Shown here in pieces: positions 295 to 39,287 of a stretch of 39,287 nt of DNA. The notes under the pieces are model-generated. The model saw only the letters and a list, made by a program, of their open reading frames with translations, was not told where the DNA came from and did not search any database. Source of the stretch: Escherichia phage vB_EcoP_PAS61; sequence record OQ921333.1; one strand, written 5' to 3'. The position numbers were made by a program, and so were the translations under genes. Within the stretch, counting starts at the first letter, position 1. Every line of letters begins with the position of its first letter.

Positions 295-1551
295 GTGCTT
301 ACCGATACAAAATTAAAAAACCTCAAGCCGCAGGACAAACTGTACAAGGTCTCCGATCGTGACGGGCTGTATGTAGCTGTGCTTACGTCAGGAACGGTCT
401 CGTTTCGCTATGACTACCGTATCAACGGTCGCCGCGAAACACTGGTAATCGGGCAGTATGGGCGTGACGGTATCAGTCTGGCAGAAGCGCGAGAAGAACT
501 GATTGCTGCAAAGAAGCTGCTTAAAGCAGGCCAGTCGCCGGCTGCGGCTAAACGTGACGGTATCAAAAAGATTCGTGGTGCCGAGACGTTTGCGGTACAT
601 ACCGACAGTTATATGAAACACGTCATCCTGGCTGACAGTACCCGCGCAATGAAGCAGTCGGTGATCGACCGTGACATACTTCCGGTTCTTGGCAACAAAA
701 TGATGGCTGAAATTACCACATCGATGGTTCGTGATTTGTGTGACCGGATTGTCGAACGCGGTGGCCGTGCAACAGCAGTACAGGCCAGGGAGATCATCAG
801 CAGCGTATACCGTCACGCCAATGACCGTGGTCATGGTTTGTTTAATCCTGCGGCTGACATTAAACCTTCGTCTATCGCCATATTTAAACCACGAGAGCGA
901 ACACTGACACCAGAAGAAATTGGCCTGTTCTTCCGCACGCTGGATGCCATTGGTGCTATGGGCACTATGAAAATGGCTTTAAAGCTGGTGCTTATCACTA
1001 TGGTTCGTAAAGGCGAATTCACTAATGCAACGTGGGACGAAATAGATTTTAAAAAATGGACATGGACAATTCCTTCAGACCGCATGAAGGGAAGCCGGGC
1101 GCACGTTATTTACCTGCCTAAACAGGCACAGGATATATTGGTTGGGTTGCAGATGTGCGCTGGTGGAAGTGAATATCTGGTTCCTGGTCGTTACAATTTC
1201 CGGAAGCCATTATCTAATGCCGCGCTGAACTCTCTGATCGACAGAACGGTGAAAATAATAAATGAAGATGGTGAGCATATTCAGGACTTCACCGTACACG
1301 ATATGCGCCGTACAGCAAGTACGTTGTTGCATGAGGCTGGTTATCCTTCAGACTGGATTGAAAAGGCTCTGGCACATGAGCAGAAAGGTGTGCGCGCCGT
1401 ATATAACAAAGCGGAATACGCCAGACAGCGCGCCTACATGTTGCAGCAGTGGGCCGATATGATTGATTCCTGGATTAACGGGGAGCATACGGATCTGATT
1501 CCGTTCTCCCCGTCGAAGTTTGAGAGGTGGATGGAAGACAGTAATAAATAA
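295..1551 (+). CDS. int: Tyrosine site-specific integrase (P4-like family), GTG start
   Basis: 418 aa ORF; N-terminal LTDTKLKNLKP...YKVSDRDGLYV motif typical of P4-type integrases; C-terminal HDMRRTASTLL...Y catalytic region; located at the prophage end. Confidence 0.9.
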   Translation: MLTDTKLKNLKPQDKLYKVSDRDGLYVAVLTSGTVSFRYDYRINGRRETLVIGQYGRDGISLAEAREELIAAKKLLKAGQSPAAAKRDGIKKIRGAETFAVHTDSYMKHVILADSTRAMKQSVIDRDILPVLGNKMMAEITTSMVRDLCDRIVERGGRATAVQAREIISSVYRHANDRGHGLFNPAADIKPSSIAIFKPRERTLTPEEIGLFFRTLDAIGAMGTMKMALKLVLITMVRKGEFTNATWDEIDFKKWTWTIPSDRMKGSRAHVIYLPKQAQDILVGLQMCAGGSEYLVPGRYNFRKPLSNAALNSLIDRTVKIINEDGEHIQDFTVHDMRRTASTLLHEAGYPSDWIEKALAHEQKGVRAVYNKAEYARQRAYMLQQWADMIDSWINGEHTDLIPFSPSKFERWMEDSNK

Positions 1552-6602: not shown

Positions 6603-6833
6603 ATGAGCGATAACGGACATTTCGATTTCAAAAAGCACTGGCTTGCACTTACTCCGGATGAGCGTGAAGCCTTCGCACAGGAAGCCGGAACGACGAGTCA
6701 CTATATCCAGACTCACTTAACAGGTAAGCGCAAAATGCCAGGTAAAGTATTGATGAATGGGCTTTTTAAAGCCTGTAAATCAAGACAATGGTTGCGCTCA
6801 AAAGCAGAACTGGCATACTTCTTCTACTCATGA
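6603..6833 (+). CDS. Putative Cro-like early regulator (position-based call)
   Basis: 76 aa ORF transcribed divergently from the repressor immediately after the operator region; weak HTH-like segment. Confidence 0.4.
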   Translation: MSDNGHFDFKKHWLALTPDEREAFAQEAGTTSHYIQTHLTGKRKMPGKVLMNGLFKACKSRQWLRSKAELAYFFYS

Positions 6834-6983
6834 TATCCAGCCACAACCCTCTGTAGACCGCCATCCGGCGGTCTTTTCATATCTATTCGCACCTCAAAGG
6901 TAATAAAAAACCAAATCTGGTTGATCTTTTTTTTGTGTCAGCACAAAATAACCGTAATCCCAATACTAATAACAGGGCTTACC

Positions 6984-7184
6984 ATGGAAATCATTACACG
7001 TATTGATGCCGCAAAGCGCGGACTTAAACGCTACTACACCGGAAAACCATGTAAGCACGGACATGACAGTGAACGCTGGGTTTACAACGGACACTGTGTT
7101 GAGTGCACCATGGAATCAAACCGTCGCATCAGGGCAGAGATTAAGCAGATCATGATTAATTCCTCCCCACAACATTCAAGCTGA
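6984..7184 (+). CDS. Small zinc-ribbon protein (CxxH...CxxC), possible early regulator
   Basis: GKPCKHGH...NGHCVEC motif; start moved to MEIITRID ATG. Confidence 0.45.
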   Translation: MEIITRIDAAKRGLKRYYTGKPCKHGHDSERWVYNGHCVECTMESNRRIRAEIKQIMINSSPQHSS

Positions 7185-7199
7185 TAGCGGAGATTAATC

Positions 7200-8015
7200 A
7201 TGAGCAGACATGCAACAGATTGGGCCTGGGAGACAGATCCAGGTAGCTCGTCATTAAAGCTCATACTGCTCTCGATGGCTGACAGAGCCGATGAATATAA
7301 CCTCTGCTACCCCAGCATAGAACGCCTCGTTAAAGACACCTGCTTGAATAAAAAAACCGTACAGGCCGGGCTTATATCGCTCATGAAAATGGGGCTTATT
7401 TCAGATACCGGAGAGAGAAAGGGAGCGACGAAAAGAGTGCGGGTTTTCTCTCTTAATATAACCAAAAAAGGGAACATTAAAGGCAACCTAGATGGGTGTA
7501 ATGAACCCGAAAACGGTAATGTTCCCAAAAACGGGAATATACCCAAAAACGGGATGTTGAATGATCCCAAAAACGGGATGTTGAATGATCCCAAAAACGG
7601 GATCCAGAACCAGTCATATAACCAGTCATTTAACCAAGAGAGGGAGAGCAGGACAAAAACCGGGGATTCTGTGCCTCATGACCCCGGCGCAAACAACGCC
7701 GTGATGAATAACTTTGTTCCTCCTGGTGGGCCAGGGCAATTAGGCAAATTTGTCATGCATGAACAATGGCAGCCATCAGATGACTTTCTTCGGAAAAGCT
7801 CATTGCAGGGAATCTACCTGGACAGTCTGCCAACGGCACAGGAACTTGCAGAGTTCAGAATTTACTGGATGGCTGAGGGTAAGGCATACCATCAGGCACA
7901 GTGGGAGCAGAAGCTGGCAAGGCGGCTGCAGATTAGCAGACAGAAGCAATCAACATTACCTGATAACAACGTTCCGCACTGGAACAGCCCTGAAGCATGG
8001 GAGGATTTCTTGTGA
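7200..8015 (+). CDS. Replication initiator (lambda O-like role) with N-terminal HTH domain; contains origin iterons
   Basis: 271 aa; N-terminal HTH-like region; internal PKNG repeat encoded by DNA iterons; directly coupled to a lambda P-like gene. Confidence 0.65.
   Translation: MSRHATDWAWETDPGSSSLKLILLSMADRADEYNLCYPSIERLVKDTCLNKKTVQAGLISLMKMGLISDTGERKGATKRVRVFSLNITKKGNIKGNLDGCNEPENGNVPKNGNIPKNGMLNDPKNGMLNDPKNGIQNQSYNQSFNQERESRTKTGDSVPHDPGANNAVMNNFVPPGGPGQLGKFVMHEQWQPSDDFLRKSSLQGIYLDSLPTAQELAEFRIYWMAEGKAYHQAQWEQKLARRLQISRQKQSTLPDNNVPHWNSPEAWEDFL
7506..7602. repeat. Putative origin of replication: five iterons CCC(A/G)AAAACGG(G/T)A spaced 18-24 bp, including a perfect 24-bp tandem repeat (7551-7574 / 7575-7598)
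   Basis: Direct repeats at 7506, 7524, 7542, 7566, 7590 read from sequence; location inside the initiator gene as in lambda ori. Confidence 0.7.
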
Positions 8016-8797
8016 ACAACGTTTTTACCGCGATACAAAACCGTGACGGAGAAGCCCTTTCTCGCATGTCAGGTTATGAGCATCAGTACACCAACAATGA
8101 CAACGTGGTGAACATGTCAGCAGAGAGGCTTGTTGATGCCCTTTTCAAACAGCTGAAACAACTGTTTCCGGCGGCAGTGGTAACCAACCTGAAGACGCCA
8201 GAGCAGGAAGTTGCTGCAAAACAGCAGTGGATTGCTGCGTTTGCCGAAGGGGGGATCCGAACCCGTGAACAGGTTTCTGCTGGTATGCGCCACGCCCGCG
8301 CCAGTGAATCTCCGTTCTGGCCGTCGCCAGGGCAATTTATCAAGTGGTGTAAAGACAGCAAGATGGTTCTTGGCGTCACCATTGACGATGTGATGGCGGA
8401 GTTTCATCGGTACAGCAAGGAAAAAAGTTTATATCCTGGTGGTCCCGAAAGATTCCCGTGGCGGCATCCGGTTATGTACTGGGTCGTATGTGATACCCGC
8501 CGTGCAATGTATCAGCGCCAGCTTAGCGAGATTGAAGTTGAGAAACACGCGCGCAGGCTGCTCGATGATTGGGCGAAAAAGGTGGCTTCCGGACAGCAGA
8601 TACCCGATCCGGTGATCAGCATACAGGCAAAGCCAGAGCCCATGAGTACACCTCCGGACACAGGGAGAGACGTTTACCATCCACCAGGGCGAAGTTTCGG
8701 GTGCATGCCTAACGCCGCCACCCTTGGGGGAATAACACCGGCGCAGTGGCTGATGGAGGAATACAGGCGGGGAAAGGCGGCAGGATTTATCAAGTAA
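8012..8797 (+). CDS. Replication protein P-like (helicase loader)
   Basis: Similarity from memory to lambda P (FPA...Q.EV...QW..AF.E.GI.T.EQV.AGMR.AR....PF.PSPGQF..WC); GTG start overlapping upstream stop (GTGA) with GGAGG RBS. Confidence 0.75.
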   Translation: MNNVFTAIQNRDGEALSRMSGYEHQYTNNDNVVNMSAERLVDALFKQLKQLFPAAVVTNLKTPEQEVAAKQQWIAAFAEGGIRTREQVSAGMRHARASESPFWPSPGQFIKWCKDSKMVLGVTIDDVMAEFHRYSKEKSLYPGGPERFPWRHPVMYWVVCDTRRAMYQRQLSEIEVEKHARRLLDDWAKKVASGQQIPDPVISIQAKPEPMSTPPDTGRDVYHPPGRSFGCMPNAATLGGITPAQWLMEEYRRGKAAGFIK

Positions 8798-8834
8798 TAC
8801 CAGCGCGATAGCGCATTTTTTTACGCCTCAACAA

Positions 8835-8911
8835 TTACCTATAAGGTAACAAAATATTCTAAACTCTATTGATTTCGTGTCTTATGTGGTTTTTAATTAC
8901 CTTAGAGGTAA
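8835..8911 (+). promoter_or_regulatory. Promoter/operator region: TTACCTATAAGGTAA (8835-8849), -35 TTGATT (8869-8874), spacer containing TTATGTGGTT, -10 TTTAAT (8892-8897), TTACCTTAGAGGTAA (8897-8911) overlapping the RBS of the downstream gene
   Basis: Motifs read directly. Confidence 0.45.
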
Positions 8912-8914
8912 ATC

Positions 8915-9262
8915 ATGAGAAAACAGATACAGGCTCTTGGTCGACTCAAAACAGGCCAGATGAACAAAACAGAATCTGCGTATTGCCAGCACCTTGAGCA
9001 GCGTAAACGTGCAGGGGAAATCGCCTGGTATCGATTCGAGGGTATCAAGCTGCGGTTAGCTGACAACACGTTCTATACGCCCGATTTCGCTGTGATGCTC
9101 GCCACCGGAGAGATGGAACTGCACGAAGTGAAAGGGGGATTCTGGACCGACGACGCCAGGGTGAAAACCAAAGTAGCCGCAGATCAGTATCCGTTCCGAA
9201 TCATCGGGGTAACGGTTAAACCAAAGAAAGCAGGTGGCGGCTGGAACATCGAAGAGTTCTGA
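8915..9262 (+). CDS. DUF1064-like phage protein (possible nuclease/resolvase-like)
   Basis: 115 aa; YCQHLEQRKRAGEI..YRFEG..L....FYTPDF pattern recalled as DUF1064. Confidence 0.5.
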   Translation: MRKQIQALGRLKTGQMNKTESAYCQHLEQRKRAGEIAWYRFEGIKLRLADNTFYTPDFAVMLATGEMELHEVKGGFWTDDARVKTKVAADQYPFRIIGVTVKPKKAGGGWNIEEF

Positions 9263-9323
9263 ATCGACGATCTTTTTAGTTATCAATGTAATCAATAAGT
9301 TATGTGGATAAGCGAGGGTAAAG

Positions 9324-9971
9324 ATGGAAAGTAATATCAAAGGGTTAGTTGCCGCCGGGCATGAGATGGCTTCGGAACTGAAAGCAGAATGTGGTGCCGT
9401 TGATATGCGCAGTATGGCAAAGCTGATCAGCGATTTGGCAACGCAACTGGAAGTGCAACTGGTGCGTGCTAATGCGCTGGCCGAAGACCAGCAGAAAGCG
9501 ATTGAGTCAATTAAGCAGGCTGATTCAACTGTTAAGTTGGCGCACGAGAAGTTTTCGGCGCTTGCGGCGGAGAATGAACTGGCTCGTAAGGCAGTTAAGG
9601 CATTCTGCGATGTTGTTGGCGACAACACCGAGGTTATCGCTGAGGAGGTTGGGCGAGATGGCGTTCTGGTTATTTTGAAGGCCATGAAGGCAACAGGAAA
9701 TATGTCAGCCACCGACGCTTTCCTGGCTGAAATTCGTGCGGAAGCACGCAACGAGGGGATTAACTATACCGCCAGCCGTCTTGCTGCTGCGTTCAATCAC
9801 GGATTTATCAATAAGTCTTTGCGTGAAGTTTTCGACGTTACACGCATGATTTTGTCAGCGAAAGAAGAGTTGGCTAATGAAGCGCATCCGATTGATGGCC
9901 TGTCTGGTGAATATGCGGAGAAATCCCTTGAAGAATGGGCGGAACAGATTCGCAAAGGAGGCAGCCAGTGA
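9324..9971 (+). CDS. Hypothetical protein
   Basis: 215 aa ORF, Ala/Glu-rich, no recognised motif. Confidence 0.5.
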   Translation: MESNIKGLVAAGHEMASELKAECGAVDMRSMAKLISDLATQLEVQLVRANALAEDQQKAIESIKQADSTVKLAHEKFSALAAENELARKAVKAFCDVVGDNTEVIAEEVGRDGVLVILKAMKATGNMSATDAFLAEIRAEARNEGINYTASRLAAAFNHGFINKSLREVFDVTRMILSAKEELANEAHPIDGLSGEYAEKSLEEWAEQIRKGGSQ

Positions 9972-10564
9972 GCAAGATTGACTATCAGGCACTGCGTGAG
10001 ATAGCAAAACAGGCAACACAAAGCGAATGGGTCGCATTTATTTCGCCGGGTACTGGTACGTATGCGGTGCATACGCCCGGTGATAAACGATGTGAAGACG
10101 TTATCAAATGGACCGGCTTTGATGGACAGAAAAATGCAGAGAACAACGCTCGTTATATCGCAGCTTTCAACCCTGAAGTAGTGCAGGCGCTGCTGGATGA
10201 ACGGGAATCCCAAAACAAGCGTATTGCAGAACTGGAGAAAAGCGAAGAGCAACTCATTAACGAGCGTGACCATGCTGAGTCTGCTTTAGATGATATGTAC
10301 TTTGCAGCAACCGGTAACAGGCCGGAGTGGAGCAACTGGTTCGGCTTTTCAGATGCTGTCGATGCCGTGGTTGACAGAATTGCTGATTTAGAAGCTAAAC
10401 AGCCATCGCCAGTAGTACCGGAAGGACTGGTTAAAGCAGTGCGCTTCTATGAACAGGTTAAGCGTGAAAATCCGCCAGTCGAAACCGGAGCATGGAAAGA
10501 CGCTGTTGACTGGGTGCTCAAAGAGGCTTGCCAGGTTGTAAACACTGGCATCAAAGGAGAGTGA
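9968..10564 (+). CDS. Ead/Ea22-like phage protein
   Basis: GTG start overlapping upstream stop after GGAGG; coiled-coil central region; family call from memory. Confidence 0.5.
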   Translation: MSKIDYQALREIAKQATQSEWVAFISPGTGTYAVHTPGDKRCEDVIKWTGFDGQKNAENNARYIAAFNPEVVQALLDERESQNKRIAELEKSEEQLINERDHAESALDDMYFAATGNRPEWSNWFGFSDAVDAVVDRIADLEAKQPSPVVPEGLVKAVRFYEQVKRENPPVETGAWKDAVDWVLKEACQVVNTGIKGE

Positions 10565-10758: not shown

Positions 10759-11457
10759 ATGAATTCTATTACCAAAGAACGTATCGAATTATTCATTAAA
10801 AATCCGCTTGAAAACGGGCTTACCCGTGGCGAACAAATGGAACTGGCACGAATTGCACTGGCATCACTGGCAGCAGTATCGGATGAACGAGCAGCCTATG
10901 AATTATTTATGGAGAAGCGTTTCGGGGAATCTGTAGATCGCCGCAGGGCGAAAAATGGTGATAGAGAATACATGGCATGGGATATGGCGCTTGGCTGGAT
11001 TATCTGGTGTCACCGCGCCGCCATGCTTCAGGGAGGCCAACCTGTAAACCAAACTTACAACTTGCCAGAATTAATCGAAGGCATGGAAGTTTCCATTGAT
11101 GTAAGCACTTGTGATGCTGATTTAGGTAATCGCTATTTCGGCACCGTCACCGAGGCGTTAGAACTTGATACTGCCAAGAATGGTTACATCCTCCTGGTTC
11201 AGGACGCAGAGCCAAACTTCGATGTAAATGGCAACTCTCCGGTAACTCCGGATAGTTGGATAAGCTGTAGTGAGCGAATGCCAGGCGATGGTCAGCACGT
11301 AATTATTTTATGTGATGGCACATTCGTTCTTTATGCGCAATATCGAGATGGAGAGTTTTTCGATATTGTCCGCAATGGTGATGAATTTTTCGAAACACAG
11401 AGTCGCAATGTAACCGACTGGATGCCGCTGCCAGAACCGCCGCAGGAGATGAAGTAA
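10759..11457 (+). CDS. DUF551 domain protein
   Basis: C-terminal WISCSERMP...DWMPLPEPP pattern typical of DUF551 phage proteins. Confidence 0.55.
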   Translation: MNSITKERIELFIKNPLENGLTRGEQMELARIALASLAAVSDERAAYELFMEKRFGESVDRRRAKNGDREYMAWDMALGWIIWCHRAAMLQGGQPVNQTYNLPELIEGMEVSIDVSTCDADLGNRYFGTVTEALELDTAKNGYILLVQDAEPNFDVNGNSPVTPDSWISCSERMPGDGQHVIILCDGTFVLYAQYRDGEFFDIVRNGDEFFETQSRNVTDWMPLPEPPQEMK

Positions 11458-12464: not shown

Positions 12465-13061
12465 ATGATGCCTGCTGAACCTAAAACCTATAAACGCAAA
12501 TCAACGCAATTTAAGCCACTAACAGCAATGCAGGAGGCTTATTGCCAGTCATACATCAAAACGCCTGAAAACCAGACTCAGGCAGCGATTAACGCAGGGT
12601 TCTCCCCAAATACAGCGGCAGTTAAAGCCAGTGTCATGATGCGCGATGAACGCATTCAAAAACGGATTGCCGAGTTGATGGAGGAGCGCAACAAACGAAT
12701 GCGCGTCAGTGCTGATTACGTTCTCATGCGCCTGGTGGAGATCGACCAGATGGACGTGATCGACATCCTCAACGACGATGGGAGCCTTAAACCAATCCGT
12801 GAGTGGCCGAAAATCTGGCGCACTACGCTTAGTGGCTTTGATCTGTCATCGACCATCATGAACATGAACGAGGATTCGATAGAGACAATCCTCAAAAAAA
12901 TTAAATGGCCTGACAAGGTGAAGAACCTTGAGCTGATTGGTAAGCATGTTGATGTCAACGCGTTCAAAGAACGTCTGGATGTTAATGTGAATGTGACAAT
13001 TGCTGATCGCATAGCAGCAGCCAGGAAGCGACTCAAAGAACGTCAGGATGGTAATCAGTGA
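12465..13061 (+). CDS. Terminase small subunit
   Basis: Position immediately upstream of and translationally coupled to terminase large subunit; basic N-terminal region; start moved to ATG after the terminator. Confidence 0.65.
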   Translation: MMPAEPKTYKRKSTQFKPLTAMQEAYCQSYIKTPENQTQAAINAGFSPNTAAVKASVMMRDERIQKRIAELMEERNKRMRVSADYVLMRLVEIDQMDVIDILNDDGSLKPIREWPKIWRTTLSGFDLSSTIMNMNEDSIETILKKIKWPDKVKNLELIGKHVDVNAFKERLDVNVNVTIADRIAAARKRLKERQDGNQ

Positions 13062-14533
13062 CAGATACAGCGTTATCTCCTGAAGAGCAGTTGATCGAGG
13101 ATATTGCAGGGTTCACTCACGATCCGCTTGGCTATGCCCTCTATGCGTTCCCGTGGGGGGAAGAGGGGACTGAACTGGCACATGCTACCGGCCCACGTCA
13201 GTGGCAGGCTGATGCGTTCCGAGAGATACGTGATCACCTGCAGAATCCAGAGACGCGCTATCAGCCGCTTATGCTGGCACGCGCTTCTGGTCACGGTATT
13301 GGTAAATCCGCATTCATCTCAATGCTGATCAACTGGGGCATGTCCACTTGCGAGGATTGTAAGGTCGTGGTGACCGCCAACACCGACAACCAGCTACGAA
13401 CGAAGACCTGGCCGGAAATTATCAAGTGGTCGAACCTTGCTATCACGAAAGACTGGTTTACCTGTACCGCTACCGCGATGTACAGCAATGATCCTGGGCA
13501 CGACAAGCGGTGGCGAGCTGACGCAATCCCCTGGTCTGAGCACAACACTGAGGCATTCGCCGGACTACACAACGAGCGCAAACGCATCATCGTGGTATTC
13601 GATGAAGCGTCGAACATTGCGGATCTGGTGTGGGAAGTTGCTGAGGGGGCGCTAACGGACGAAGACACTGAGATTATCTGGGTGGCGTTCGGAAACCCTA
13701 CACGTAACACCGGGCGTTTCCGCGAATGTTTCCGCAAATATAAACACCGCTGGAAAACTGCGCAGATTGACAGCCGGACGGTGGAAGGCACTAACAAACA
13801 GCAGTTGCAGAAATGGGTTGATGACTACGGGGAAGACAGCGACTTCGTTAAAATCCGTGTGCGCGGCATATTCCCTGATGCATCTGAATTGCAGTTTATC
13901 CCTACCGGTCTTACTGATGAGGCAATGAAACGGGTGGTAACCGCTGCGCAGGTTGCACATGCTCCGGTGATAATCGGCGTTGACCCGGCATACTCAGGCG
14001 TTGATGACGCGGTGATATACCTGCGGCAGGGGCTGCACAGTAAGGTGCTATGGACTGGTAACAAGACCACCGACGATCTGATTATGGCGAAGCGTATCGC
14101 TGACTTTGAAGACCAGTATCAGGCTGACGCGGTGTTCATCGACTTCGGTTACGGAACCGGTTTGAAGTCAATCGGTGATGGCTGGGGACGTACATGGCAA
14201 CTTGTTCCGTTCGGCGGTGCGTCCACTGACCCGCAGATGCTTAACAAGCGTGGGGAGATGTTCAACTCATGTAAGACATGGCTGAGGCTGGGCGGCATGC
14301 TGGATGACCAGGAAACTGCAGACGACCTGTCAGCGGCAGAGTACAAAGTTCGTGTGGACGGTAAAATCGTTATCGAACCGAAGGAAGATATCAAGGAGCG
14401 GCTTGGGCGTTCGCCGGGTAAAGGCGATGCGCTACTGCTGACGTTTGCTTTCCCTGTGTCGAAGCGTCTGCGAATTCCTGGGCAGCAGAACCAGCAAGGC
14501 AAGGCCATCACAGATTATGACCCGTATGCTTAA
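13058..14533 (+). CDS. Terminase large subunit
   Basis: 491 aa; Walker A-like ARASGHGIGKS; GTG start overlapping terS stop. Confidence 0.9.
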   Translation: MTDTALSPEEQLIEDIAGFTHDPLGYALYAFPWGEEGTELAHATGPRQWQADAFREIRDHLQNPETRYQPLMLARASGHGIGKSAFISMLINWGMSTCEDCKVVVTANTDNQLRTKTWPEIIKWSNLAITKDWFTCTATAMYSNDPGHDKRWRADAIPWSEHNTEAFAGLHNERKRIIVVFDEASNIADLVWEVAEGALTDEDTEIIWVAFGNPTRNTGRFRECFRKYKHRWKTAQIDSRTVEGTNKQQLQKWVDDYGEDSDFVKIRVRGIFPDASELQFIPTGLTDEAMKRVVTAAQVAHAPVIIGVDPAYSGVDDAVIYLRQGLHSKVLWTGNKTTDDLIMAKRIADFEDQYQADAVFIDFGYGTGLKSIGDGWGRTWQLVPFGGASTDPQMLNKRGEMFNSCKTWLRLGGMLDDQETADDLSAAEYKVRVDGKIVIEPKEDIKERLGRSPGKGDALLLTFAFPVSKRLRIPGQQNQQGKAITDYDPYA

Positions 14534-14623: not shown

Positions 14624-15046
14624 TTAGAAGGTTATTTTATCGAATGCGGCGTTGATTGCCTTGGCGTCCTGCTCAGCACCAACCACATCAAGTAAAGATC
14701 TTTTACTAAGCACTTCAGCCAGGCATTGTAACTTCATGTTGTATAAGTTTTCGCGCATGTAATCATCATCACTTTTTTCTTTGGCGTATACAGCGCGAGA
14801 AATATCAAACACATTGCCTTTTTCCATTTCAGTTTTCTGCGCTGAAATCCAGTCATGGCAAGTAACTCCTATTCCATGGTCATCGCTAAGCGTTAACCCG
14901 GCAAGTCGCTCACCTGGAATTGCTTCATAAAGCATTTCATTTCCTGCAAAAACACCATAAAAAATTGAGTCATCACCCTGAACAATGCGTACATATTTGC
15001 ACGGCCATTCATTTAGATATTTAGCTAGCATGTCGGCTGTTTTCAT
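14624..15046 (-). CDS. Moron gene of unknown function (antisense to the late operon)
   Basis: 140 aa ORF with balanced composition on the opposite strand between terminase and portal, downstream of a tRNA and an intrinsic terminator. Confidence 0.55.
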   Translation of the reverse strand: MKTADMLAKYLNEWPCKYVRIVQGDDSIFYGVFAGNEMLYEAIPGERLAGLTLSDDHGIGVTCHDWISAQKTEMEKGNVFDISRAVYAKEKSDDDYMRENLYNMKLQCLAEVLSKRSLLDVVGAEQDAKAINAAFDKITF

Positions 15047-15056
15047 GATCTCACTT

Positions 15057-15081
15057 TAAAAAAATGCCCGGCGAACCGGGC
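15057..15081 (-). terminator. Rho-independent terminator (GCCCGG-CGAA-CCGGGC followed by U7 on the minus strand) downstream of the tRNA
   Basis: Perfect stem with 7-nt U-run on minus strand. Confidence 0.55.
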
Positions 15082-15211
15082 TGTACTGGTTTACAGCATG
15101 AAGTCATCGCAATGGCGTCCTGCTGTAAAAAGGGCGGTGATAGTTCTTCAAGGGAAACCATCACCGCCAAGCCCCTGGAACTTCTGGCATCACGGTCCTT
15201 AGGCGTGATTC

Positions 15212-15288
15212 TGGCGTGGCATGCAGGATTCGAACCTGCGACCAACCGCTTAGAAGGCGGTTGCTCTGTCCGACTGAGCTAATGCCAC
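15212..15288 (-). tRNA. tRNA-Arg (anticodon UCU), phage-encoded
   Basis: Hand-folded cloverleaf: acceptor GTGGCAT/ATGCCAC, D-stem GCTC/GAGC, anticodon stem ACCGC/GCGGT with loop CTTCTAA, T-arm GCAGG-TTCGAAT-CCTGC, discriminator G and encoded CCA. Confidence 0.85.
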
Positions 15289-15610
15289 AACGCTGAGAGC
15301 ACTTAGCCTGTTAAGGCGCCACACTTTGTCGCGGCTCCATAAATGCTCTCATCGTTGTACCCTCGTCTCTTCCGAGGCGTCACACCGAATCGCCGGGATG
15401 GTGAATCCCCGTGCGCGGAATAAAACCGCTCGACTTGCACATTCCGGCTACCTGGTTCGTTTGCCCGAGCAAGGGAGGGTGCCCCTTAAACGTATCCAGA
15501 CCGCTATCGGCGCATGTGCCATACGCCGTACTGCTCAAAATAAAAGCTCACTCCACCTGTTTAATTTAACGACAAGCCAGTCAGGTTAGTAACCAGAATG
15601 AGCTCTTTAG

Positions 15611-15677
15611 TTACCTGAAAGGTAATAATTCACGCGTTAAATGTCAACCTTCTACGATAAATAAATCATATGTGGTT
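15611..15677. promoter_or_regulatory. Regulatory region upstream of the portal module: TTACCTGAAAGGTAA (15611-15625), TTGACA on minus strand (15647-15642), CATATGTGGTT (15667-15677)
   Basis: Motifs read directly. Confidence 0.4.
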
Positions 15678-15715
15678 AAATTGGTAATAATTTAATTGCG
15701 TACGGAGTCATTGAT

Positions 15716-15922
15716 ATGTGCATGGGTAGCTCACCATCAGTGCCTGCAACACCAGAAGTTCAGGCAGCACCACAGGAGCAGGATGCCGCCGTTGTTGATG
15801 CCCGCGACGAAGAAACACGTCGCCGTCGCGCTGCTGCTGGTCGTAGTTCTACGCTGCTTACCGGTTCTCAGGGCGACACATCAACCGCTAATACCAGCGG
15901 TAAAACGCTGCTTGGTCAGTAA
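15716..15922 (+). CDS. Small Ala/Gly/Thr-rich hypothetical protein upstream of portal
   Basis: 68 aa; RBS context GGAGTCATTGAtATG nearly identical to that of the portal gene. Confidence 0.45.
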   Translation: MCMGSSPSVPATPEVQAAPQEQDAAVVDARDEETRRRRAAAGRSSTLLTGSQGDTSTANTSGKTLLGQ

Positions 15923-15936
15923 CCGGAGTCATTGAA

Positions 15937-18144
15937 ATGGCGGAAACAACTAAAGAGCGATTGAACAAACAGTTCGCACAACTTGAAAGCGAGCGTCAGT
16001 CGTTCGAGCCGCACTGGCGCGAGTTGAGTGATTACATCAACCCGCGTGGTTCCCGCTTTCTGACTTCTGAGGTCAACCGTAACGATCGACGCAATACACG
16101 CATTATTGATTCGACCGGGACTATGGCGGCGCGCACTCTCGCCAGCGGCATGATGTCAGGCATCACAAGCCCTGCGCGTCCGTGGTTTCGCCTGGCTACG
16201 CCAGATCCTGAAATGATGGATTATGGTCCTGTTAAGTTGTGGCTCGAGGCGGTGCAGAACCGCATGAACGATATGTTCAATAAGTCGAATCTCTACCAGT
16301 CTCTTCCGCAGTTATACGGAAGCCTCGGCACATACAGCACTGGTGCAATGGCGGTGCTGGAGGATGACGAGGACATCATTCGCACAATGCCATTCCCGAT
16401 AGGCAGTTACTACCTGGCTAACTCACCTCGTGGCAGTGTGGACACCTGTTTTCGCAAGTTCTCTATGACTGTTCGTCAGCTTGTTCAGGAGTTCGGGCTA
16501 AATAACGTCAGCGAATCCGTAAAAAGCATGTGGGAAAGCGGCACCTACGAGAAGTGGATTGACGTGATGCATTCGGTTTACCCGAACATTGACCGCGATA
16601 CATTGAAGCTGGATAGCAAGAACAAGCCATTCAAATCGGTTTATTACGAGGTTGGTGGCGATAACGACAAGTTGTTGCGTGAGTCCGGATTCACAAGCCC
16701 TGCGCGTCCGTGGTTTCGCCTGGCTACGCCAGATCCTGAAATGATGGATTATGGTCCTGTTAAGTTGTGGCTCGAGGCGGTGCAGAACCGCATGAACGAT
16801 ATGTTCAATAAGTCGAATCTCTACCAGTCTCTTCCGCAGTTATACGGAAGCCTCGGCACATACAGCACTGGTGCAATGGCGGTGCTGGAGGATGACGAGG
16901 ACATCATTCGCACAATGCCATTCCCGATAGGCAGTTACTACCTGGCTAACTCACCTCGTGGCAGTGTGGACACCTGTTTTCGCAAGTTCTCTATGACTGT
17001 TCGTCAGCTTGTTCAGGAGTTCGGGCTAAATAACGTCAGCGAATCCGTAAAAAGCATGTGGGAAAGCGGCACCTACGAGAAGTGGATTGACGTGATGCAT
17101 TCGGTTTACCCGAACATTGACCGCGATACATTGAAGCTGGATAGCAAGAACAAGCCATTCAAATCGGTTTATTACGAGGTTGGTGGCGATAACGACAAGT
17201 TGTTGCGTGAGTCCGGATTTGATGAGTTTCCAATTATGGCTCCGCGCTGGGAAGTTAATGGCGAAGATGTTTATGGATCATCATGCCCGGGTATGCTGGC
17301 GCTTGGACCTGTTAAGGCATTGCAGCTTCTCCAGAAGCGCAAGTCGCAGTTGATTGATAAAGCCACCAATCCGCCGATGGTTGCTCCGACTTCCCTCAAG
17401 AATCAGCGCGCCTCCCTTCTTCCTGGCGACATCACGTATATCGATCAGATTACTGGTCAGGATGGTTTCAGGCCTGCTTATCTGGTTAACCCCAGTACAG
17501 CAGATCTGGTAGCAGACATTCAGGACACTCGTCAAATCATTAACAGCGCCTACTTTGTCGATCTGTTCATGATGTTGCAGAACATCAATACCCGCTCGAT
17601 GCCTGTTGAAGCGGTGATCGAAATGAAAGAAGAAAAACTTCTGATGTTGGGGCCGGTTCTGGAGCGTCTGAACGACGAATGTCTTAACCCTCTCATTGAC
17701 CGCGCTTTCTCGATGATGGTGCGTAAAAACATGCTGCCGCCACCGCCTGACGCGATGGAAGGTATGCCCCTGAAGGTCGAATACATTTCCGTCATGGCTC
17801 AGGCGCAGAAGTCTATCGGCCTGTCCAGTCTGGCGTCCACGGTTAACTTCATTGGTCAACTTGCGCAAGCGAAACCAGAAGCTCTCGACAAACTCAACGT
17901 TGATCAGGCGATCGATGCATTCGCTGATATGTCCGGAGTGTCTCCAACCGTCATTGTTCCGCAGGAACAGGTTGAGCAGGCTCGCCAGCAACGGGCACAG
18001 CAACAACAGCAGCAACAAATGATGGCGATGGGGATGGCGGCGGCACAGGGTGCCAAGACGCTAAGCGAAGCTAAAACTTCGGATCCGAGTGTTTTGTCAG
18101 CTATGGCGAATGCAGTTAGTGGTCAGGGTGGGCAATCACAATGA
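15937..18144 (+). CDS. Portal (head-to-tail connector) protein, T7 gp8-like, carrying an internal in-frame 176-codon tandem duplication
   Basis: 735 aa; Gln-rich C-terminus recalls T7 gp8; position after terminase; internal duplicated segment TSPARPWF...LLRESGF. Confidence 0.8.
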   Translation: MAETTKERLNKQFAQLESERQSFEPHWRELSDYINPRGSRFLTSEVNRNDRRNTRIIDSTGTMAARTLASGMMSGITSPARPWFRLATPDPEMMDYGPVKLWLEAVQNRMNDMFNKSNLYQSLPQLYGSLGTYSTGAMAVLEDDEDIIRTMPFPIGSYYLANSPRGSVDTCFRKFSMTVRQLVQEFGLNNVSESVKSMWESGTYEKWIDVMHSVYPNIDRDTLKLDSKNKPFKSVYYEVGGDNDKLLRESGFTSPARPWFRLATPDPEMMDYGPVKLWLEAVQNRMNDMFNKSNLYQSLPQLYGSLGTYSTGAMAVLEDDEDIIRTMPFPIGSYYLANSPRGSVDTCFRKFSMTVRQLVQEFGLNNVSESVKSMWESGTYEKWIDVMHSVYPNIDRDTLKLDSKNKPFKSVYYEVGGDNDKLLRESGFDEFPIMAPRWEVNGEDVYGSSCPGMLALGPVKALQLLQKRKSQLIDKATNPPMVAPTSLKNQRASLLPGDITYIDQITGQDGFRPAYLVNPSTADLVADIQDTRQIINSAYFVDLFMMLQNINTRSMPVEAVIEMKEEKLLMLGPVLERLNDECLNPLIDRAFSMMVRKNMLPPPPDAMEGMPLKVEYISVMAQAQKSIGLSSLASTVNFIGQLAQAKPEALDKLNVDQAIDAFADMSGVSPTVIVPQEQVEQARQQRAQQQQQQQMMAMGMAAAQGAKTLSEAKTSDPSVLSAMANAVSGQGGQSQ
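16163..17218 (+). repeat. Perfect tandem direct duplication, 2 x 528 bp (16163-16690 and 16691-17218), inside the portal gene
   Basis: Nucleotide-level identity read across both copies; the ORF-track translation repeats the same 176 aa. Confidence 0.9.
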
Positions 18145-18437
18145 CAGATTACGAAGACGATCAACTGAAAGAAGAAAACGCCCGTAAGCAACGTGACATG
18201 GCACAGCGTGAAATTGATGACATTCGCTTTGTCATGAGCAGTGAACAGGGGCGTCGCGTTGTCTGGTCGGTGCTGGAGAAAGGCCGTGTGTTTTCCGCTA
18301 TCTCACCGATGGACGCTATGGCAATGGCATTTAATGAGGGGCAACGCAATCTGGCGCTGGAACTGTTTCAGCGCGTTATGGCGCATTGCCCTGAACAGTA
18401 TTTGAAGATGGCCAAAGAGGCCAGTGAACAGGAGTGA
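18141..18437 (+). CDS. Hypothetical protein (between portal and scaffold)
   Basis: 98 aa ORF; ATGA overlap with portal stop. Confidence 0.5.
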   Translation: MTDYEDDQLKEENARKQRDMAQREIDDIRFVMSSEQGRRVVWSVLEKGRVFSAISPMDAMAMAFNEGQRNLALELFQRVMAHCPEQYLKMAKEASEQE

Positions 18438-18439
18438 TC

Positions 18440-19135
18440 ATGAATTTATTTGAGCGTTTGCTGTATAGCCGTCTTTGCAATGAGCAACCAGTCGATGGTG
18501 GAGCAGCTCCGGCTGCGTCAGAACCGTCAGCGCCTGCAGGTGATAACCCTGCTCCAGTTGGTGATCCATCACAACAGGAAGGTGATAAGCGACAACCTGT
18601 TGCTGATGGCGATAAACCTGCTGATGACAAAAAGCCTGAAAACGATAAGCAGGATGAAAAAAAGGACGGCGATAAACCAGAGGGTGCGCCTGAGAAGTAC
18701 GAGTTTCAGGCTGCCGAAGGCGTAGAGCTGGATACAGAAGCGTTGAAGGAATTCGAGCCGGTGGCGCGAGAACTTAACCTGACCAACGAGCAAGCGCAAA
18801 AGCTGGTTGATGCTTATCCGAAGATTCTGGCAGGTGTTCAGCAGCGCCAGGCAGAAGCCTGGCAGAAAACAACCGAGCAGTGGGCTGCGGATGTAAAAGC
18901 TGACAAAGAAATCGGTGGCGACAAGTTGATTTCTAACCTTAGCGCCGCACAGCGTGCGCTTGACCAGTTCGGGACACCTGAACTCAAAGAATATCTGAAC
19001 ACCACCGGGCTGGGTAATCACCCTGATCTGGTCAAAACGTTCGTGAAAATCGGAAAGGCGATGTCTGAAGATGGCATGGTCACCGGTGGTAATGAAGGCC
19101 AGCGTAGTGCGGCCGAAGTGCTCTATGGCAAATAA
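18440..19135 (+). CDS. Scaffolding protein (putative)
   Basis: Acidic low-complexity N-terminal half (D/E/K/P-rich), position immediately upstream of major capsid gene. Confidence 0.6.
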   Translation: MNLFERLLYSRLCNEQPVDGGAAPAASEPSAPAGDNPAPVGDPSQQEGDKRQPVADGDKPADDKKPENDKQDEKKDGDKPEGAPEKYEFQAAEGVELDTEALKEFEPVARELNLTNEQAQKLVDAYPKILAGVQQRQAEAWQKTTEQWAADVKADKEIGGDKLISNLSAAQRALDQFGTPELKEYLNTTGLGNHPDLVKTFVKIGKAMSEDGMVTGGNEGQRSAAEVLYGK

Positions 19136-19143
19136 GAGAGGAA

Positions 19144-20136
19144 ATGACAATGTCTGTTAAAGGCTTAACTGCGCTAACGCTGGCTGACTGGGGTAAGCGC
19201 GTCGATCCAAACGGGAAAGTCGATAAGATTATCGAGCTTCTCGGTCAAACTAACCCGATCCTTCAGGATATGCCTTTTGTCGAAGGGAACCTTCCTACCG
19301 GACACCGAACCACCATTCGTTCTGGTTTACCTTCAGCTACCTGGCGTTTGCTGAACTATGGCGTACAGCCAAGCAAATCAACCACAGTGCAGGTAACCGA
19401 TTCCGTGGGCATGCTGGAAACCTATGCTGAAGTCGATAAGTCACTGGCTGATCTGAACGGCAATACCGCCGAATTCCGCCTGTCTGAAGACCGCGCATTT
19501 ATTGAAGCGATGAATCAGCAGATGGCGCAGACGCTGTTTTATGGTGATTCCAGCGTTAACCCTCAGCAGTTTATGGGACTGTCCTCCCGCTATTCCAGCC
19601 TGTCTGCGGGTAATGCTCAGAACATCATTGATGCTGGTGGCACGGGTACAGATAACACCTCAATCTGGTTAGTGGTGTGGGGCGAAAACACCGTGCATGG
19701 CATCTTCCCGAAAGGGCAGAAGGCTGGCATCCAGATGGAAGATAAAGGCCAGGTGACACTGGAAGATGCTAATGGCGGCAAGTACGAAGGCTATCGCACC
19801 CATTACAAATGGGACAACGGACTTGCTCTGCGTGACTGGCGTTATGTTGTTCGCATTGCAAATATCGATGTCAGCAATCTTTCAGAACCTTCCTCTGCCG
19901 CAAATATTGCGAAGTTGATGGTTAAAGCACTACATCGCATTCCAAACCGTGGCATGGGCCGCCCGGTGTTCTACATGAACCGCACTGTAGGCCAGGCTCT
20001 TGATCTGCAGTCTCTGGAGAAAACATCTCTGGCTATCAGCGTAAAAGAGACTGAAGGCGAGTGGTGGACTTCATTCCGTGGTGTACCAATCCGTGAAACT
20101 GATGCGCTTCTGGAAACAGAAGCCCGCGTGGTGTAA
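19144..20136 (+). CDS. Major capsid protein
   Basis: 330 aa; position after scaffold; strong RBS; followed by stem-loop. Confidence 0.8.
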   Translation: MTMSVKGLTALTLADWGKRVDPNGKVDKIIELLGQTNPILQDMPFVEGNLPTGHRTTIRSGLPSATWRLLNYGVQPSKSTTVQVTDSVGMLETYAEVDKSLADLNGNTAEFRLSEDRAFIEAMNQQMAQTLFYGDSSVNPQQFMGLSSRYSSLSAGNAQNIIDAGGTGTDNTSIWLVVWGENTVHGIFPKGQKAGIQMEDKGQVTLEDANGGKYEGYRTHYKWDNGLALRDWRYVVRIANIDVSNLSEPSSAANIAKLMVKALHRIPNRGMGRPVFYMNRTVGQALDLQSLEKTSLAISVKETEGEWWTSFRGVPIRETDALLETEARVV

Positions 20137-38174: not shown

Positions 38175-38793
38175 ACAATTCCAGCGAGCTGCTGGTATTA
38201 GCGAGGCGCTGGCCGCACGCTGGTTCTCGCATATAACTTCTGCGATGAAAGAGTTTGGTATCAGCAAACCAGAAGATCAGGCAATGTTTATTGCTCAGGT
38301 CGGGCATGAGTCTGGAGGCTTCACCCGGTTGCAGGAAAATTTCAACTACAGCGTCACCGGACTGGCTAACTTCGTTCGTGCCGGTCGTCTCACTCAGGGA
38401 CAAGCCAACGCACTGGGTCGCCGTGCTGGTGAACCACCATTGCCACTCGAGCGCCAGCGCGCGATCGCAAATCTGGTATACAGCAAACGCATGGGGAACA
38501 ATGCCCCCGGCGATGGCTGGAATTACCGAGGTCGCGGACTTATCCAGATTACCGGTTTGAATAACTATCGTGACTGCGGAAACGGCTTGAAAGTGGACTT
38601 GCTGGAGAATCCTGAACTGCTGGCGCAGGACGAATACGCGGCTCGTAGCGCGGCGTGGTTCTTTGCCAGCAAAGGATGCATGAAGTATACCGGTGATATT
38701 GCACGTGTAACTCTGATTATCAATGGTGGCCGGAACGGCATCGACGACCGGCGCGCGCGGTACGTCACTGCCAGTAAGGTGCTGGCTATATGA
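38164..38793 (+). CDS. Endolysin, glycoside hydrolase family 19 (chitinase-like lysozyme)
   Basis: [17 protein letters not shown]19 signature and [12 protein letters not shown] region; start moved to ATG after GAGG. Confidence 0.8.
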
Positions 38794-39287
38794 TCTGGGC
38801 ATTCGTAAAAGCATATTGGAAACAGCTGCTTATCGTGTTGATGCTTGCTGCTCTGTTCATCGTCGGAGTGGTTGCCTGGAATATACACGGCAGCCGCCAG
38901 TACGATGCCGGGTATGCGCGGGCACAGGAAGATCAGAAACAGGCTGATGATAAGGCCAGGTCACAACGTGATCAGGAGAAAACACAAATTGAACGTGAAG
39001 CACAATACCGTATCGATGTGGCGCGTGTTGATGCTGAGCATGCTAATGCCGCTGCTGACAGCCTGCGCGCCGAGCTTGACAAAACCAAGCGACTCGCCGA
39101 ACACTATACCGGATCTTTCCCCACTGGCACGCCAGCCAGCAAGGTCATCGGTGTGCTCGCCGACATGCTTGAAGAAAGCAATCGAGTTTACAACGCAACA
39201 GCAGCTGAGGCTGAAAAGTATCGGATTGCAGGAGAATCCTGCGAACAGCAATACGATTCACTGAAGAAGCAAAAATCGTGGCACTGA
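38790..39287 (+). CDS. Rz-like i-spanin
   Basis: N-terminal TM segment then charged coiled-coil region; ATGA overlap with endolysin stop; embedded Rz1-like ORF. Confidence 0.7.
39016..39264 (+). CDS. Rz1-like o-spanin lipoprotein embedded in +1 frame of Rz
   Basis: Signal/lipobox [17 protein letters not shown] followed by Pro-rich segment; start codon uncertain (39016 or 39031). Confidence 0.5.
   Translation: MWRVLMLSMLMPLLTACAPSLTKPSDSPNTIPDLSPLARQPARSSVCSPTCLKKAIEFTTQQQLRLKSIGLQENPANSNTIH

Follow-up and report, generated by a model that had tools for sequence, protein, structure and literature searches.

A perfect in-frame tandem repeat in the portal gene of Escherichia phage vB_EcoP_PAS61, very probably an artefact of record building

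The deposited genome of Escherichia phage vB_EcoP_PAS61 (OQ921333.1; 39,287 nt, analysed here over its full length and referred to as the window) encodes a portal protein in which one long segment is present twice. This raises the question whether the repeat belongs to the phage or to the way in which its record was built. PAS61 is a temperate Uetakevirus from bovine samples (Pas et al. 2024, PMC11522302) and falls into the phiV10/epsilon15-like group. A preliminary description of the locus had reported a perfect in-frame tandem duplication of 528 bp in the portal gene and had offered three origins for it, namely a very recent duplication, an assembly artefact, and an engineered or defective prophage. 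In this study, the repeat, its occurrence in related genomes, the lengths of related portal proteins and the history of the record were examined.

The repeat and the portal gene that carries it

Positions 16163-16690 and 16691-17218 of the window (both on the plus strand) are identical over 528 nt with 0 mismatches, strictly tandem and without a spacer, in agreement with the preliminary description. The identity extends by 1 nt to the right (the T at 16691 equals the T at 17219) and by 0 nt to the left, leaving 1 nt of microhomology at the junction. Self-BLAST of the window aligned 16163-16691 with 16691-17219 at 100% and returned this as the sole long repeat in the window; Tandem Repeats Finder did not call it, because its longest period is 500. 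A perfect repeat of 528 nt within 39 kb cannot have originated by chance. The sole sequence created by the duplication is the novel junction …GAGTCCGGATT/CACAAGCCCTG… (16671..16710, plus strand; the slash marks the join), which is seamless and contains no foreign, vector or scar sequence.

The repeat lies within the open reading frame at 15937..18144 (plus strand), whose 735-aa product matches exactly the sequence of WMX18986.1 ('head-to-tail connector protein', UniRef A0AA51VIP0) of PAS61. With its first base at the second position of codon 76 and a length of 176 codons, the repeat preserves the frame. Portal residues 77-252 (TSPARPWF...LLRESGF), encoded by copy 1, reappear as residues 253-428, encoded by copy 2, and the junction codon, TTC, still specifies Phe. 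As deposited, the protein has 735 aa and a computed mass of 82.6 kDa; with one copy removed it has 559 aa and 62.4 kDa, which bears out the expectation of about 559 aa in the preliminary description. A repeat length that is a multiple of three would be expected of an artefact one time in three and would be required of a real duplication in a viable phage, and to that extent it speaks against an artefact. Only a real duplication would give rise to the junction peptide of the 735-aa product, …LLRESGFTSPAR….

The assignment as a portal is supported by profile matches and by gene position. The 735-aa protein matches the Pfam family PF12236 (Head-tail_con) with 825.5 bits (cut-off 27) and phrog_332 with 1100 bits, in both cases in two stretches, and the second PF12236 stretch restarts at profile position 71, at residue 252 of the protein. 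The match covers the whole profile, as for podovirus-type portals of the T7 gp8 / epsilon15 gp4 family. The gene lies between the large terminase gene (13058..14533, plus strand; phrog_2 and phrog_5902; annotated as 'terminase' in E. coli MLI109) and the genes of a Bbp19-like protein, a protease/scaffold protein and the major capsid protein (18141..20136, plus strand; PF25181 and PF20911, with phrog_458 for the protease), and it is the sole portal gene of PAS61. The head module is otherwise normal: small and large terminase, portal, Bbp19-like protein, protease and major capsid protein are present, and all genes of the module other than the portal gene are intact. The repeat is located 3.8 kb downstream of the small-terminase gene, terS. 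A portal of this subfamily would be expected to have a single, co-linear copy of the fold in about 555-561 aa, from which the deposited protein departs with 735 aa; with one copy removed, it is co-linear at 559 aa.

The duplicated segment corresponds to PF12236 profile positions ~71-247. In T7 gp8, the N-terminal part of the chain, upstream of the stem helices, forms the portal wing together with chain parts that come later (PMC6702177). Profile coordinates against T7 gp8 would place the segment in the N-terminal part of the wing. Most likely it is not a self-contained domain, because the wing also uses later chain parts. Among solved structures, the nearest is 8CK0, which tblastn identified as the portal of Cobetia marina phage Carin-1, and phmmer aligned the 556-aa chain 8CK0_A with E = 4.6e-178 over residues 2-547, co-linearly and with gaps of one residue only. 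A literature search found no paper citing 8CK0. AlphaFold2 models were unusable both for the 735-aa protein without an alignment (pLDDT 36) and for P0034, a homologue of 559 aa that was supplied with 40 aligned homologues at 79-94% identity (pLDDT 35).

Single copies in relatives and in the portal family

Related phages carry the segment once. Over positions 15500-18600 of the window, 35 phage records match, and among the matches listed all 30 that cover the repeat have one copy. In all full-length matches listed, the relatives span 2,573 nt where PAS61 has 3,101, exactly 528 fewer. Phages phiV10, phiv142-3, TL-2011b and ZX5 are 98.1-98.6% identical to PAS61 over this interval. The same portal gene is found, at up to 99.7% identity, in 541 E. 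coli records from 538 of 5,426 complete genomes, and all E. coli matches listed are single-copy. The closest relative is a prophage of E. coli MLI109, in which the portal gene is annotated with 1,680 nt and 559 aa (WP_000852414.1). When one copy is removed from the PAS61 gene, it differs from the MLI109 allele by 1 nt in 1680 (L223S). Aligned as deposited, PAS61 gives two BLAST segments that overlap by 529 nt on the MLI109 reference, and on this alignment the overlap reads as the signature of a clean duplication.

The junction itself was searched with a 40-mer, with which megablast can seed only where the junction exists; a 100-nt junction query was uninformative, as the half-matches of single-copy genomes were merged into one place. 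Neither the 5,426 complete E. coli genomes nor the 50,697 phage records contained a match to the 40-mer, and exact searches of IMG/VR, GTDB species representatives and JGI metagenome contigs with a junction 30-mer likewise found nothing. Among the independent sequences searched, none contains the junction, as would be expected of an artefact. A genuine duplication would be recognised from more than one independent sequence, or from spanning reads or PCR, and the junction was found in OQ921333 only.

The lengths of related portal proteins, a comparison which the preliminary description had recommended, also set PAS61 apart. Among ~15 billion proteins, the 735-aa sequence is a singleton cluster, and the 99%-identical cluster of 559 aa holds 2,332 sequences. 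In the best 120 of 6,420 clusters (E ≤ 1e-20), 118 have 555-561 aa; the two exceptions are PAS61 itself, with 735 aa, and a portal-capsid fusion. An exhaustive HMMER search was made over 1.84 billion representatives, from which 150 clusters, down to 40% identity, were listed. Full-length portal relatives among these 150 representatives have 536-615 aa, and none of the 150 is a duplicated portal. The sole two-stretch match among them (P0121) is an internal deletion. Rearranged alleles of this portal occur in E. coli genomes, namely the deletion in P0121 and a portal-capsid fusion (P0008).

Both breakpoints of the PAS61 repeat fall within motifs that do not vary among 40 homologues (79-94% identity), GMMSGI/TSPARPWF and LLRESGF/DEFPI (slashes mark the breakpoints). 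Judged from these alignments, their placement appears to suit an arbitrary cut better than a domain boundary.

Making of the record and origin of the repeat

PAS61 forms plaques of 1 mm with a halo on E. coli A11-1675; its DNA was sequenced from Nextera XT libraries with 2x150-nt MiSeq reads and assembled with MIRA 4.0.2 (PMC11522302). Long reads, PCR, a check by read mapping and an analysis of the termini are all absent from that publication, which also does not mention the portal and cites no read archive accession. Reads of 150 nt cannot span a perfect repeat of 528 nt. Thus, the reads were shorter than the repeat and the assembly was reported without independent validation, as an artefact of this kind would presuppose. 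It should be added that MIRA is in principle able to rebuild a true two-copy repeat from doubled coverage and junction reads, a point that speaks against an artefact.

The ends of the record were evidently chosen. Its first gene is the integrase gene (295..1551, plus strand; phrog_1), with the record starting 294 nt upstream of it, and its last is the gene of an Rz-like spanin (38790..39287, plus strand; phrog_312), whose stop codon ends with the last base of the record, the window closing on …GGCACTGA. The records of HEMP4, TL-2011b and phiv142-3, which are in prophage order, likewise start or end within ~100 nt of the first base of the window. Since no assembler picks an integrase gene as the first and a spanin stop codon as the last element, the contig must have been cut and its former ends rejoined by hand. 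Therefore, a man-made join exists somewhere inside the record, as an artefact of hand-chosen boundaries and internally joined contig ends would presuppose.

The sister genomes PAS7 and PAS59 from the same study were scanned and contain no internal perfect duplication. PAS59 has a terminal repeat of 275 nt, and terminal repeats were annotated by the authors of that study. We considered whether this repeat could be an over-extended MIRA contig and rejected the idea, as a repeat is annotated at the corresponding place in a relative, phage NC-B; the 275-nt repeat is probably genuine and correctly handled. An error in the pipeline would therefore not be systematic, because neither sister genome has an internal duplication and the terminal repeat of PAS59 appears to be genuine. 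A literature search on DNA packaging in Uetakevirus yielded nothing usable.

Taken together, the tandem duplication is very probably an artefact of record building, produced by redundant contig ends that were left untrimmed before rotation or by an equivalent short-read misassembly. The virion DNA of this phage group would assemble as a circle, and an overlap-based short-read assembler such as MIRA could then extend its linear contig beyond the full length of the genome, so that the same stretch stands at both ends. Here, the redundant stretch would be the 528 nt inside the portal gene, so that the original contig would have had overlapping ends that met at 16690/16691. When the contig was re-oriented to prophage order, with the integrase first and the spanin last, it would have been cut and its old ends joined. 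With the redundant end left untrimmed, the two copies would come to lie next to each other and be perfectly identical, as they are in the record, and annotation would have read straight through because 528 is divisible by 3. The real phage would possess an ordinary portal of 559 aa. Contigs that extend beyond 100% of permuted or terminally redundant genomes, with the redundancy kept after re-orientation, are described in the Phage Annotation Guide (PMC8785237). We favour this origin on the basis of the short-read-only MIRA assembly, the hand-rotated record, a junction unique to that record, and a collapsed gene that is 1 nt away from a natural allele. Of the origins proposed in the preliminary description, the assembly artefact is thus the one that gained most. 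The phage itself probably has a genome of 38,759 bp, in place of the 39,287 bp deposited, and a portal of 559 aa.

The main alternative is a real and recent tandem duplication in the PAS61 lineage, generated by illegitimate recombination or replication slippage, and we regard it as unlikely. It would enlarge the portal by 176 residues (20 kDa per subunit, at 12 per virion), with one copy seated in the wing as in an ordinary portal and the other looping out. Several observations are compatible with this. The repeat is in frame and its junction codon remains Phe, the 1 nt of microhomology would suit illegitimate recombination, one intact copy of every conserved motif is retained, and the deposited consensus of a viable phage contains two copies. 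The portal gene does rearrange, as the P0121 deletion and the P0008 portal-capsid fusion in E. coli demonstrate, and the laboratory that deposited PAS61 resolved the 275-nt terminal repeat of PAS59 and introduced no internal duplication into PAS7 or PAS59. However, the junction occurs in no other record, all matches listed from the 541 records of E. coli and the 35 of phages are single-copy, and neither the best 120 of 6,420 clusters nor the 150 representatives, which reach down to 40% identity, include a further member of comparable length. The breakpoints interrupt invariant motifs instead of falling between domains, the segment would not be a self-contained domain, and two copies are not directly proved by reads of 150 nt. 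It would be remarkable for the sole portal of a phage with normal plaques to carry twelve extra segments of 20 kDa, and to our knowledge no tandem duplication is known inside the portal gene of a viable phage. A RecT-family gene is annotated in close relatives of PAS61, and in a phage with such relatives a perfect repeat of 528 nt would be unstable and would be expected to collapse quickly by homologous recombination. Hence, of the very recent duplication suggested in the preliminary description, the preserved frame stands, and the duplication as an event in the phage became improbable in view of the tight lengths in the family and the breakpoints in invariant motifs.

It is far less probable still that the virion DNA truly has the 528 nt as a direct repeat at its ends, which would have double coverage and would have been misplaced internally on rotation. 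Such an error has been described for terminally repetitive phages (PMC8785237), and the study that yielded PAS61 annotated terminal repeats in PAS59. Nevertheless, a terminal repeat would coincide with the physical ends of the genome or with the packaging start; the repeat of PAS61 lies inside the portal open reading frame, so that these ends would fall within a late gene that is essential, 3.8 kb beyond terS, and no record of a full-length relative starts or ends there or carries such a repeat. The genome length of epsilon15 is reportedly described as 'non-redundant', which would point to permuted terminal redundancy and away from fixed repeats. Finally, an engineered construct or a defective prophage with a broken portal, which had also been proposed, can practically be dismissed. 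The abnormal gene length alone would suggest it; the genome comes from a phage that was isolated through the plaques it forms on E. coli A11-1675, the junction is seamless and has neither vector nor scar sequence, and the other genes of the module are intact.

Consequences and comparison with known portals and duplications

If the repeat is an artefact, as we favour, the consequences concern data quality only. OQ921333 and WMX18986.1 (UniRef A0AA51VIP0) would need correction, intergenomic similarity values calculated from OQ921333 would be slightly off, and the 735-aa 'portal' would be unsuitable for representing the family or for use in training data. If it is real, PAS61, a viable temperate podovirus, would be one of few natural examples in which a phage portal accommodates a large internal duplication. 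The portal wing would then tolerate a large insertion, and the locus might show a central virion machine while a domain expands by duplication, with relevance to work on capsid assembly and to the engineering of portals for display.

In comparison with known systems, PAS61 is closest to the Uetakevirus phages phiV10, phiv142-3, TL-2011b and vB_EcoP_ZX5 and to the MLI109 prophage, with 98-99.7% nucleotide identity over positions 15500-18600. PAS61 and its Uetakevirus relatives have a common gene order (terL, tRNA-Arg, a small open reading frame, portal, Bbp19, protease, capsid). However, the relatives have one 528-nt segment and a portal of 559 aa, whereas PAS61 as deposited has two segments and 735 aa. 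The solved portals of Carin-1 (8CK0) and T7 (gp8) share the PF12236 fold with the PAS61 portal, and 8CK0 is co-linear with the single-copy protein. Neither of these structures has a repeated wing segment, whereas the 735-aa open reading frame of PAS61 contains a restart of the profile. The classical tandem duplications of phages lambda and T4 resemble the PAS61 repeat in being head-to-tail with minimal junction homology; they are unstable and were usually selected for genome length or gene dosage. The error type set out in the Phage Annotation Guide is like the PAS61 repeat in the identity and adjacency of the copies, in the absence of the repeat from relatives, in the use of short reads and in a hand-chosen start. 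Unlike the generic form of this error, the repeat in PAS61 has a length that keeps the reading frame.

Allelic difference in the portal gene

With one copy of the 528-nt repeat (copies at 16163-16690 and 16691-17218) removed, the PAS61 portal gene was compared with its closest allele, the single-copy 1680-nt portal gene of a prophage in E. coli strain MLI109. We observed a sole nucleotide difference, at portal nt 668, which corresponds to positions 16604 and 17132 of the window, one in each copy. As a result, residue 223 is Leu in the PAS61 portal and Ser in the MLI109 allele. The Leu223 nucleotide lies within the repeated segment and is carried by both copies. This is expected if the repeat is an assembly artefact and equally if it is a real duplication in the phage, and the shared change therefore does not discriminate between the two explanations.

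Other rearranged alleles of the PAS61-type portal are also known from E. coli assemblies, namely the homologues P0121 (366 aa) and P0008 (673 aa, a portal-capsid fusion). P0121 has an in-frame internal deletion that fuses …NIDR to AFSMM…, and neither of the two is a duplication. Presumably, both originate from decaying prophages or from misassemblies.

Genes upstream of the portal

The large terminase gene (13058-14533) was assigned by phrog_2 and phrog_5902 and is annotated as 'terminase' in RefSeq. Its product gave no Pfam match at E ≤ 0.001, and the large terminase of PAS61 appears to belong to a divergent terminase lineage. Between the large terminase and portal genes, the opposite strand (14624-15288) carries an ORF of 140 aa with unknown function (14624-15046, minus strand, phrog_4846) and a tRNA-Arg(TCT) gene (15212-15288, minus strand). 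An identical layout of tRNA-Arg and 140-aa ORF is found in the annotation of the MLI109 prophage, and the pair looks like a small conserved moron-like insert within the head module.

Further upstream, the O-like replication-initiator gene (7200-8015, phrog_1032) contains tandem repeats with units of 18, 24 and 12 nt at 7498-7636, the 24-nt unit being present in 2.6 perfect copies. By analogy with the lambda O gene, these repeats are probably origin iterons.

Repeats and a possibly split gene in the sister phages

Two sister phage genomes were reported in the same study as PAS61. In the T7-like PAS7 (OQ921331), a minus-strand CDS labelled 'modular polyketide synthase' is occupied throughout by a repeat array (10908-11373), whose units recur roughly every 15 nt and are 85-91% similar to one another. 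This label almost certainly misannotates a repeat region. In the PAS7 region 6741-10225, the DNA polymerase is covered by two overlapping CDSs, 7368-8582 and 8575-9729, which lie between two HNH endonuclease genes. This arrangement reflects either a genuinely split gene or an assembly frameshift.

In PAS59 (OQ921332), identical terminal repeats of 275 nt are annotated at 1-275 and 78925-79199. These are probably genuine, since phage NC-B has an annotated repeat in the equivalent region. Their length exceeds the 193 nt given as typical of kuraviruses in the SU7 paper.
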